Assembly: GCF_054482525.1 (NCBI RefSeq)
Contig: NZ_CM137006.1
Reading direction: 5' to 3' (one strand)
Length of the DNA stretch: 64,000 nt
The notes beneath the pieces are model-generated. The model was not told the DNA's origin and did not search any database. It was given only the letters and a program-made list of their open reading frames with translations. How positions within the stretch are numbered: the stretch's first letter is position 1; every line of letters begins with the position of its first letter. This document shows, one piece after another, positions 30,401 through 30,927 of this stretch. The position numbers and the translations under genes are program-made.

Positions 30401-30634
30401 TTAGTTAGAGTTAATTAGCTTATCAATCTCTGTAAGAGGTAAAGTTGTCACCTCTGCAACGTCTTCCCGAGACATCCCTTTACTTAGAAAACGCTGGGCG
30501 AATTCCTGTCTTACTTCCTGTCTTACTTCCTGTCTTACTTCTTGATACGCTTCTTGATACGCCTTCTGGAATCCCTTCTCTTCAAACCACTGCGCTAACG
30601 TCTGCCTGGTTTCTCTCCGTGTCTTTATTTCCAT
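30401..30634 (-). CDS. Free-standing small protein homologous to the Rpn C-terminal tail (RpnS-like), 77 aa
   Basis: MEIKTRRETRQTLAQWFEEKG...LSKGMSREDVAEVTTLPLTEIDKLINSN aligns with the last ~74 aa of the adjacent rpnC product. It has its own ATG with an aaggga SD 4 nt upstream and an internal 12-bp repeat array. Confidence 0.6.
   Translation of the reverse strand: MEIKTRRETRQTLAQWFEEKGFQKAYQEAYQEVRQEVRQEVRQEFAQRFLSKGMSREDVAEVTTLPLTEIDKLINSN
30503..30562 (-). repeat. 12-bp tandem repeat array inside the small tail ORF
   Basis: 3 x ttcctgtcttac followed by 2 x ttcttgatacgc, encoding (AYQE)x2-(VRQE)x3 on the minus strand. Confidence 0.8.
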
Positions 30635-30702
30635 ATGTTCCCTTAATTATCTGGTCAGTTAACAATAACAATTATCTGGCTATAACTGATAATACAGACA
30701 AC

Positions 30703-30927
30703 TTAGTTAATCAGTTTATCAATCTCAGCAAGAGGTAAATTTGCCATCTCTGCAACGTCTTCCCGAGACATTCCTTTACTCAGAAGACGCAGGGCGAATT
30801 CTTGCCTTTCCTCCTGTCTTCCCTGCTGAATCCCCTTCTCAATTCCTTTCTCCATTCCTTTCTCCATTCCCTTCTCAATTCCCTTCTCAATTCCCTTCTC
30901 TTCAAACCACTGCGCCAGCGTCATCAT
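30703..30927 (-). CDS. Candidate intragenic RpnS-like small protein (internal in-frame start within rpnC), 74 aa
   Basis: An in-frame Met-Met (residues 241-242, ...GGESMMTLAQWFEEKG...) is preceded by an SD-like gggaggggag with about 7-nt spacing. Separate translation of the tail has been described for Rpn proteins. Confidence 0.4.
   Translation of the reverse strand: MMTLAQWFEEKGIEKGIEKGMEKGMEKGIEKGIQQGRQEERQEFALRLLSKGMSREDVAEMANLPLAEIDKLIN

Follow-up and report, generated by a model that had tools for sequence, protein, structure and literature searches.

The locus lies between panC and panD in the 64-kb window (the whole stretch of DNA that was analyzed), where panB and panC on the plus strand are followed by two open reading frames (ORFs) on the minus strand and then by panD on the plus strand. 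The longer of the two ORFs matched the NCBIfam model TIGR01784 ("Rpn family recombination-promoting nuclease") at 292 bits (cutoff, 52.1; E value, 4.7e-87), and RefSeq names it rpnC in genomes with an identical locus. Its full-length product, RpnC_L, is a PD-(D/E)XK nuclease of the Rpn family that has a tail at its C terminus. The shorter ORF, rpnC_Ss, repeats that tail as a free-standing gene on the same strand, beginning 68 bp past the rpnC stop codon. Upstream of panB there is also a 411-aa ORF (window 27314-28549, plus strand), which may be a fimbrial adhesin-like protein, judging by its position beside panB (K-12 yadC region). The gene-level features were as follows.

30703..31647, minus strand: rpnC (yadD), full-length RpnC_L, 314 aa (ORF; NCBIfam TIGR01784; RefSeq name in identical genomes)
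30930..30939, minus strand: putative Shine-Dalgarno-like GGAGGGGAGT upstream of the internal ATGATG
30703..30927, minus strand: predicted internal ORF RpnC_S, 74 aa, MMTLAQWFEEKG...LIN, the intragenic antitoxin frame (translation)
30635..30702, minus strand: 68-bp spacer between rpnC and the free tail, with AAGGGA 5 nt upstream of the free-tail ATG
30401..30634, minus strand: rpnC_Ss, free-standing tail gene, 77 aa (ORF; homology to the RpnC tail)

The candidate internal start of rpnC is an in-frame ATGATG at 30922-30927 with GGGAGGGGAG just before it, so that motif and ATGATG together span 30922-30939. RpnS small proteins translated within rpn genes are antitoxins to RpnL nucleases, and internal initiation has been demonstrated for K-12 rpnC (Zhong et al. 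2023, PNAS 120:e2307382120, PMC10400941). Judging from its sequence, RpnC_S is probably expressed in the strain of the window as well. RpnC residues 246 to 283, which hold the EKG repeats, gave weak, spurious matches to NCBIfam FliH models (E values down to 9e-7); these are an artefact of a low-complexity helical repeat. PADLOC (2023 release) returned no meaningful match and has no fitting model for the Rpn locus.

The free tail is a tandem duplicate (~300 bp) of the rpnC tail, placed just downstream of it. BLASTP aligned the 77-aa protein with the final ~80 residues of RpnC at 57% identity (E value, 6e-26), and the protein matched the C-terminal positions 213-273 of TIGR01784 (E value, 8.6e-9). 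In DNA, the tails form direct repeats ~300 bp apart with ~80% identity. The spacer between the genes was identical in all four loci that were aligned. Among the ~65 free-tail loci examined, the ORF was intact in nearly all, the exceptions being low-coverage assemblies, and the start codon, the AAGGGA motif and the N-terminal MEIKTRRETRQTLAQWFEEKG were conserved. A simple consensus scan of the minus strand returned no promoter or terminator. We infer that rpnC_Ss is expressed in this strain.

RefSeq annotation of the free tail was inconsistent, ranging over hypothetical protein, transposase, and RpnC/YadD family protein. Genomes identical at the locus carry either "RpnC/YadD family protein" or "hypothetical protein" as the product label. 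In Nissle 1917 (locus L069, 1652-1819) and CFT073, PGAP calls it an incomplete "transposase" pseudogene; despite this label, the Nissle 1917 free tail is an intact 65-aa ORF with the conserved start. A Pfam scan of the 77-aa protein found no family at an E value of 0.001 or below. DUF4351 (PF14261), a Pfam annotation that separate RpnS genes of some species are reported to carry, was thus not found at this threshold; it is no strict requirement for RpnSs membership. Some close relatives of the protein carry a precomputed match to PF27070.1.

The AlphaFold2 model of the 77-aa protein (mean pLDDT, 82.9) consists of one continuous helix over residues 6 to 51, covering all of the repeats, followed by short helices at residues 56 to 63 and 67 to 75. 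The top PDB match of the model in Foldseek was 7TH0, E. coli RpnA-S, at a nonsignificant E value of 4.3 (TM scores, 0.42/0.69). A PDB sequence search with the same protein did not find 7TH0, and its sole match was the designed helical repeat protein 8VD6.

Within the two tails, Tandem Repeats Finder (TRF) reported 3.2 copies of TTCCTGTCTTAC at 30503-30541 (100% match), 2.4 copies of CTTCTTGATACGC at 30538-30567, and 6.8 copies of TTCCCTTCTCAA at 30819-30900 (88% match; score, 115). No other period-12 arrays occur in the whole 64-kb window. In 30 shuffles of the window, period-12 arrays numbered zero and there was at most one array of any period; the observed arrays exceed chance. Translation placed the arrays and the linkers that contain them as follows.

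30819..30900, minus strand: expanded 12-bp array in rpnC (TRF; EKG[I/M] x6 block at 30829-30900 by translation)
30784..30891, minus strand: RpnC linker, nine 12-nt units, IEKG IEKG MEKG MEKG IEKG IQQG RQEE RQEF ALRL
30539..30562, minus strand: AYQE x2 array of TATCAAGAAGCG-type units (translation, TRF)
30503..30538, minus strand: VRQE x3 array of perfect copies of the coding unit AGACAGGAAGTA (translation, TRF)
30488..30571, minus strand: free-tail linker, seven 12-nt units, FQKA YQEA YQEV RQEV RQEV RQEF AQRF

The first-pass annotation of this DNA had described two different 12-bp arrays at the equivalent position of two Rpn tails. TRF, translation, and the homology of the tails bear out the arrays themselves. 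Equivalence of position is correct for the linker as a whole, which in both tails is flanked by the conserved QWFEEKG and LSKGMSRED blocks, but not for the expanded units, which lie at different places within it. In RpnC, the amplified unit is the first one after QWFEEKG. In the free tail, it is AGACAGGAAGTA (RQEV), the unit just before the terminal RQEF-AQRF. The terminal units are common to both tails, and the VRQE/RQEV unit occurs as an ordinary single unit in K-12-type RpnC tails. The whole linker thus reads as a degenerate 12-nt array common to both tails, presumably descended from one ancestral array. In the window, the linkers are 36 aa (RpnC) and 28 aa (free tail) long, and the repeats begin at residue 13 of RpnC_S and at residue 22 of the free tail.

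We then looked at how the locus is distributed and how far the arrays vary. A megablast search with positions 30250-31050 matched 5,424 of 5,426 complete E. coli genomes, 1,580 of them with both tails, and a free-tail-specific query was positive in 1,556 of the 5,426 (~29%). K-12 has a single tail and is without rpnC_Ss; the free tail is also found in Escherichia marmotae and other Escherichia. Using a 28-nt invariant piece of the spacer as the query, we recovered 60 metagenome loci. The paired set, made up of metagenome loci, the window, and the two-tail complete genomes that were fetched, came to 60 two-tail loci and reduced to 34 distinct haplotype pairs. With protein-database clusters added, the distinct linkers numbered 60 for the free tail and 40 for RpnC, at lengths of 8 to 40 aa.

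As the first-pass annotation had expected, copy number differs between strains, and both arrays vary widely across the E. coli genomes compared. The allele family of the window, FQKAYQEAYQE(VRQE)nF, was found with n of 1, 2, 3, 4, 5, and 6 (in order, the related alleles of L060, L058, the window, L006, L034, and L018). AYQE falls to one copy in L067 and L070. RpnC carries 0 to 6 copies of [I/M]EKG across strains, and some other RpnC tails amplify RQEV in place of EKG units. The statement of the first-pass annotation that repeat number is reported to vary between strains was likewise accurate (Zhong et al. 2023, PMC10400941).

Two apparent cases of further tails were rejected. A third tail in H186/H187 (514-bp span) was an artefact of BLAST pieces joined across two tails. 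The longer span in O157:H7 genomes comes from a ~300-bp insertion between panC and a single-tail rpnC (locus L071, E. coli O157:H7 F6667, 671-968); it has no tail ORF inside and is an unrelated intergenic insertion, which looks like an intergenic repeat element.

Closely related genomes were informative about how the arrays change. Four complete genomes (L065 to L068) with no SNPs in ~2.7 kb of flank had three array configurations, the differences being a gain of one VRQE, a loss of one AYQE, and a gain of one VRQE together with a loss of one IEKG. Nissle 1917 stood at -1 and +1 IEKG unit relative to the metagenome contigs L016 and L040, with 0 SNPs in 2.5 to 2.7 kb, and at +12 bp relative to clone D i14, with no mismatches in 1,773 bp. 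Overall, the SNP-free flank beside single-unit changes was 1.8 to 2.7 kb long. Array change therefore proceeds in single-unit steps and is locally faster than nearby point substitution. Such stepwise change is compatible with slippage and with unequal exchange alike, and repeat change appears only where identical units adjoin. Across strains, indels inside both tail ORFs came in multiples of 6 or 12 bp without exception, leaving the ORFs open.

Over many isolates, alleles were also stable. The 801-bp allele of the window is carried unchanged by 24 complete genomes, E. coli strain 1190 among them, whose sources are dogs, humans, chickens, and water. A single span is common to all 27 listed assemblies of the Nissle 1917/CFT073/ABU 83972 group, laboratory derivatives included. 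These data thus give no sign of instability over a laboratory timescale. Most of ~36 sampled rows of single-tail K-12-type genomes (one IEKG unit) had a 449-bp span, and 17 sampled two-tail genomes had 9 different spans, a contrast that is confounded by phylogeny. The locus had been proposed to be contingency-like. This stands in the sense of a mutational hot spot and falls in the sense of an ON/OFF switch, because the 12-bp units are in-frame.

We next considered the two tails of one genome together. Their linker lengths are uncorrelated (Spearman ~0, p ~0.8), and the lengths were equal in 2 of the 34 haplotypes, compared to 1.97 expected under independence. On these values, we rejected co-variation of the two linker lengths. 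Each array can vary with the other one fixed; the free tail RQAVRQEVSQEF, for example, is paired with 2 to 6 IEKG units in RpnC. The expanded units themselves also differ, being AGACAGGAAGTA in the free tail of the window and AGACAGGAGGTA in the RQEV-type RpnC of other strains. The wobble base is that of GAA in the VRQE array of the window and that of GAG in the rpnC RQEV arrays of other strains. The VRQE and RQEV expansions are therefore independent, and the same difference led us to reject the idea that the VRQE array as a whole was copied from an RQEV array of rpnC.

However, neither tail has its units to itself. Eight exact linker sequences and 10 C-terminal segments were found in both gene contexts (rpnC and free tail), and L072 is a clear deletion-fusion in which the rpnC body is joined to the free-tail end. 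The cassettes common to both contexts point to recombination or fusion. Of the earlier proposal that the two tails diversified their repeats independently, we therefore keep that the arrays change independently, as the uncorrelated lengths and the wobble base indicate, and drop that each tail has its own units.

Strain-variable 4-aa repeats in RpnC tails are real and have been known in kind since 2023. The discoverers named rpnC_Ss (rpnCSs), placed it downstream of rpnC in certain strains of E. coli, and described it as derived from rpnC and lost by deletion or fusion (PMC10400941). They reported that strains differ in the 4-aa repeats of every E. coli RpnS protein, RpnSs included, with the most repeats in RpnC, and that the repeats lengthen the long first helix and set partner specificity (PMC10400941). 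RpnC_L is blocked only by an RpnC_S of equal repeat number; cognate RpnS blocks RpnL toxicity, and the Rpn family protects against phage (PMC10400941). The mechanism and driver of the dodecamer expansion were left open, with a suggestion that RpnL might drive it, and protein tagging was confined to the K-12 analogue YpaA/RpnE_Ss (PMC10400941). The accompanying commentary makes the same points. A literature search for newer studies of RpnC, RpnS, or DUF4351 returned only the 2023 paper and its commentary. We rely on this literature for internal translation, for the antitoxin function, for specificity by length matching, and for the family's role against phage.

The system at hand agrees with the published one in location (between panC and panD), in architecture (a nuclease gene with an internal small frame, plus a second tail downstream in some strains), and in having strain-variable 4-aa (dodecamer) repeats in a long helix, predicted in our case, RpnSs included. 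There is no difference in kind; the window holds a particular allele pair with 36-aa and 28-aa linkers. The anatomy, the variation, the stepwise nature of change, the independence of the arrays, and the cassette sharing come from the present analysis. What goes beyond PMC10400941 is the unit-level map of the linker, the uncorrelated lengths, the ±1-unit changes on zero-SNP backgrounds, and the cassettes common to both contexts. In K-12, rpnE is likewise followed directly by a free-standing copy of its tail, ypaA (RpnE_Ss), whose protein was detected by SPA tagging (PMC10400941). RpnE_Ss differs in having arisen independently from rpnE, and RpnC_Ss clusters with RpnC_S rather than with RpnE_Ss (PMC10400941). 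The "TAEL" repeats of the EcoR124I/EcoR124II HsdS proteins, cited as a precedent by Zhong et al. (PMC10400941), are likewise in-frame 12-bp units, each coding for 4 aa within a helical spacer, with copy number altering specificity. In HsdS, however, the number of repeats determines how far apart the DNA half-sites of a type I restriction enzyme lie, whereas in RpnC the matching is between a nuclease and its inhibitor protein.

Taken together, we believe that the arrays are the length-variable part of the long RpnS helix in rpnC and rpnC_Ss, changed by unit turnover and by recombination between the tails, and we put the probability of this reading at about 85%. In the RpnC system, the RpnS domain begins with a long alpha-helix, and the arrays would encode the stretch of it that varies in length, from units that each combine one hydrophobic or Arg residue with three charged residues or Gly. 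The rpnC copy of the array would be common to the RpnC_L nuclease toxin and, through the internal start, to the RpnC_S antitoxin. Where at least two identical units adjoin, units could be gained or lost, probably by replication slippage or unequal exchange, and the helix length would shift in 4-residue steps. If the published RpnC experiments extend to these alleles, helix length would decide which RpnS binds and neutralizes which RpnL. Recombination between the tails (deletion-fusion, duplication, or conversion) would move whole linker cassettes between the two contexts. Rpn is a recently recognized gene-within-a-gene toxin-antitoxin system of phage defense, and the 4-aa repeats tune its specificity.

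A consequence of the length-matching rule is that the free tail of the window, with a linker of 28 aa against 36 aa in RpnC, should not neutralize the resident RpnC_L. Nearly all of the two-tail haplotypes examined have such a mismatch, which makes the presumed antitoxin role of the free tail directly testable. In the literature consulted on rpnC_Ss, we found no published report or explanation of the lacking length co-variation. One conjecture, which we hold to be improbable, is that rpnC_Ss may be something other than a spare cognate antitoxin, either a recombination reservoir or a decoy or sensor for phage factors or foreign Rpn proteins. If true, such a reservoir might hand a new linker cassette to rpnC and thereby re-key the toxin and its intragenic antitoxin together.

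The reservoir idea can also be stated as an alternative account of the locus, in which the free tail is a recombination partner or "specificity reserve" and cassette swaps into rpnC change toxin and antitoxin specificity in one step. The linkers and C-terminal segments that are identical in both contexts (8 and 10, respectively), fusion alleles such as L072, the fusion and deletion events noted by Zhong et al. (PMC10400941), and the arrangement of the tails as direct repeats ~300 bp apart with ~80% identity would all be in keeping with it. However, occasional deletion-fusion and re-duplication explain the sharing without a selected function, no reciprocal swap was seen between the closely related genomes compared, and the wobble-base difference between the VRQE units of the window and RQEV units in rpnC favors independent expansion over copying. 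We regard this account as unlikely.

It is quite unlikely, in our judgment, that the free tail is a decaying, nonfunctional remnant of a partial tandem duplication whose repeats drift neutrally by slippage. The pseudogene call in Nissle 1917, the loss or fusion of the free tail in many genomes, and linker lengths that are uncorrelated with rpnC and equal at exactly the chance rate are what a remnant would predict. Against this, nearly all of the ~65 loci have an intact ORF with its start, AAGGGA, and N terminus conserved, the gene is retained in 1,556 of 5,426 genomes and in E. marmotae and other Escherichia, the indels in the tail ORFs all keep to multiples of 6 or 12 bp, and in K-12 a protein is produced from the analogous gene ypaA/rpnE_Ss (PMC10400941).

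A classical contingency locus, in which high-frequency reversible slippage within a population switches a phenotype as in Haemophilus or Neisseria, is very unlikely, since despite the perfect tandem units and the ±1-unit differences between genomes without flanking SNPs, 12-bp in-frame units make an ON/OFF frameshift impossible, the copies are few (2 to 6), and the 801-bp allele of the 24 complete genomes and the single span of the 27 Nissle-group assemblies are unchanged across their isolates. Simple-sequence contingency loci are likewise tandem repeats in a gene tied to conflict with parasites and likewise gain and lose units. The classical ones, however, use units of 1 to 8 nt that shift the reading frame or promoter spacing and act ON/OFF at high frequency, whereas the Rpn arrays are in-frame and of few units, with alleles stable across many isolates.

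Repeats of other periods occur elsewhere in the window. A 617-aa ORF beside lpd (47200-49053, plus strand), yacH-like in position and sequence, has a 96-bp (32-aa) unit, RERIQSASPEQRQAVREKMQTNPQNQQRREAA, repeated in tandem ~2.5 times at 48589-48862, which may be another protein repeat of variable length within the window. Period-33 and period-303 tandem repeats, at window 51820-51900 and 51930-52744, are presumably the ordinary Ala/Pro linkers and three lipoyl domains of aceF.
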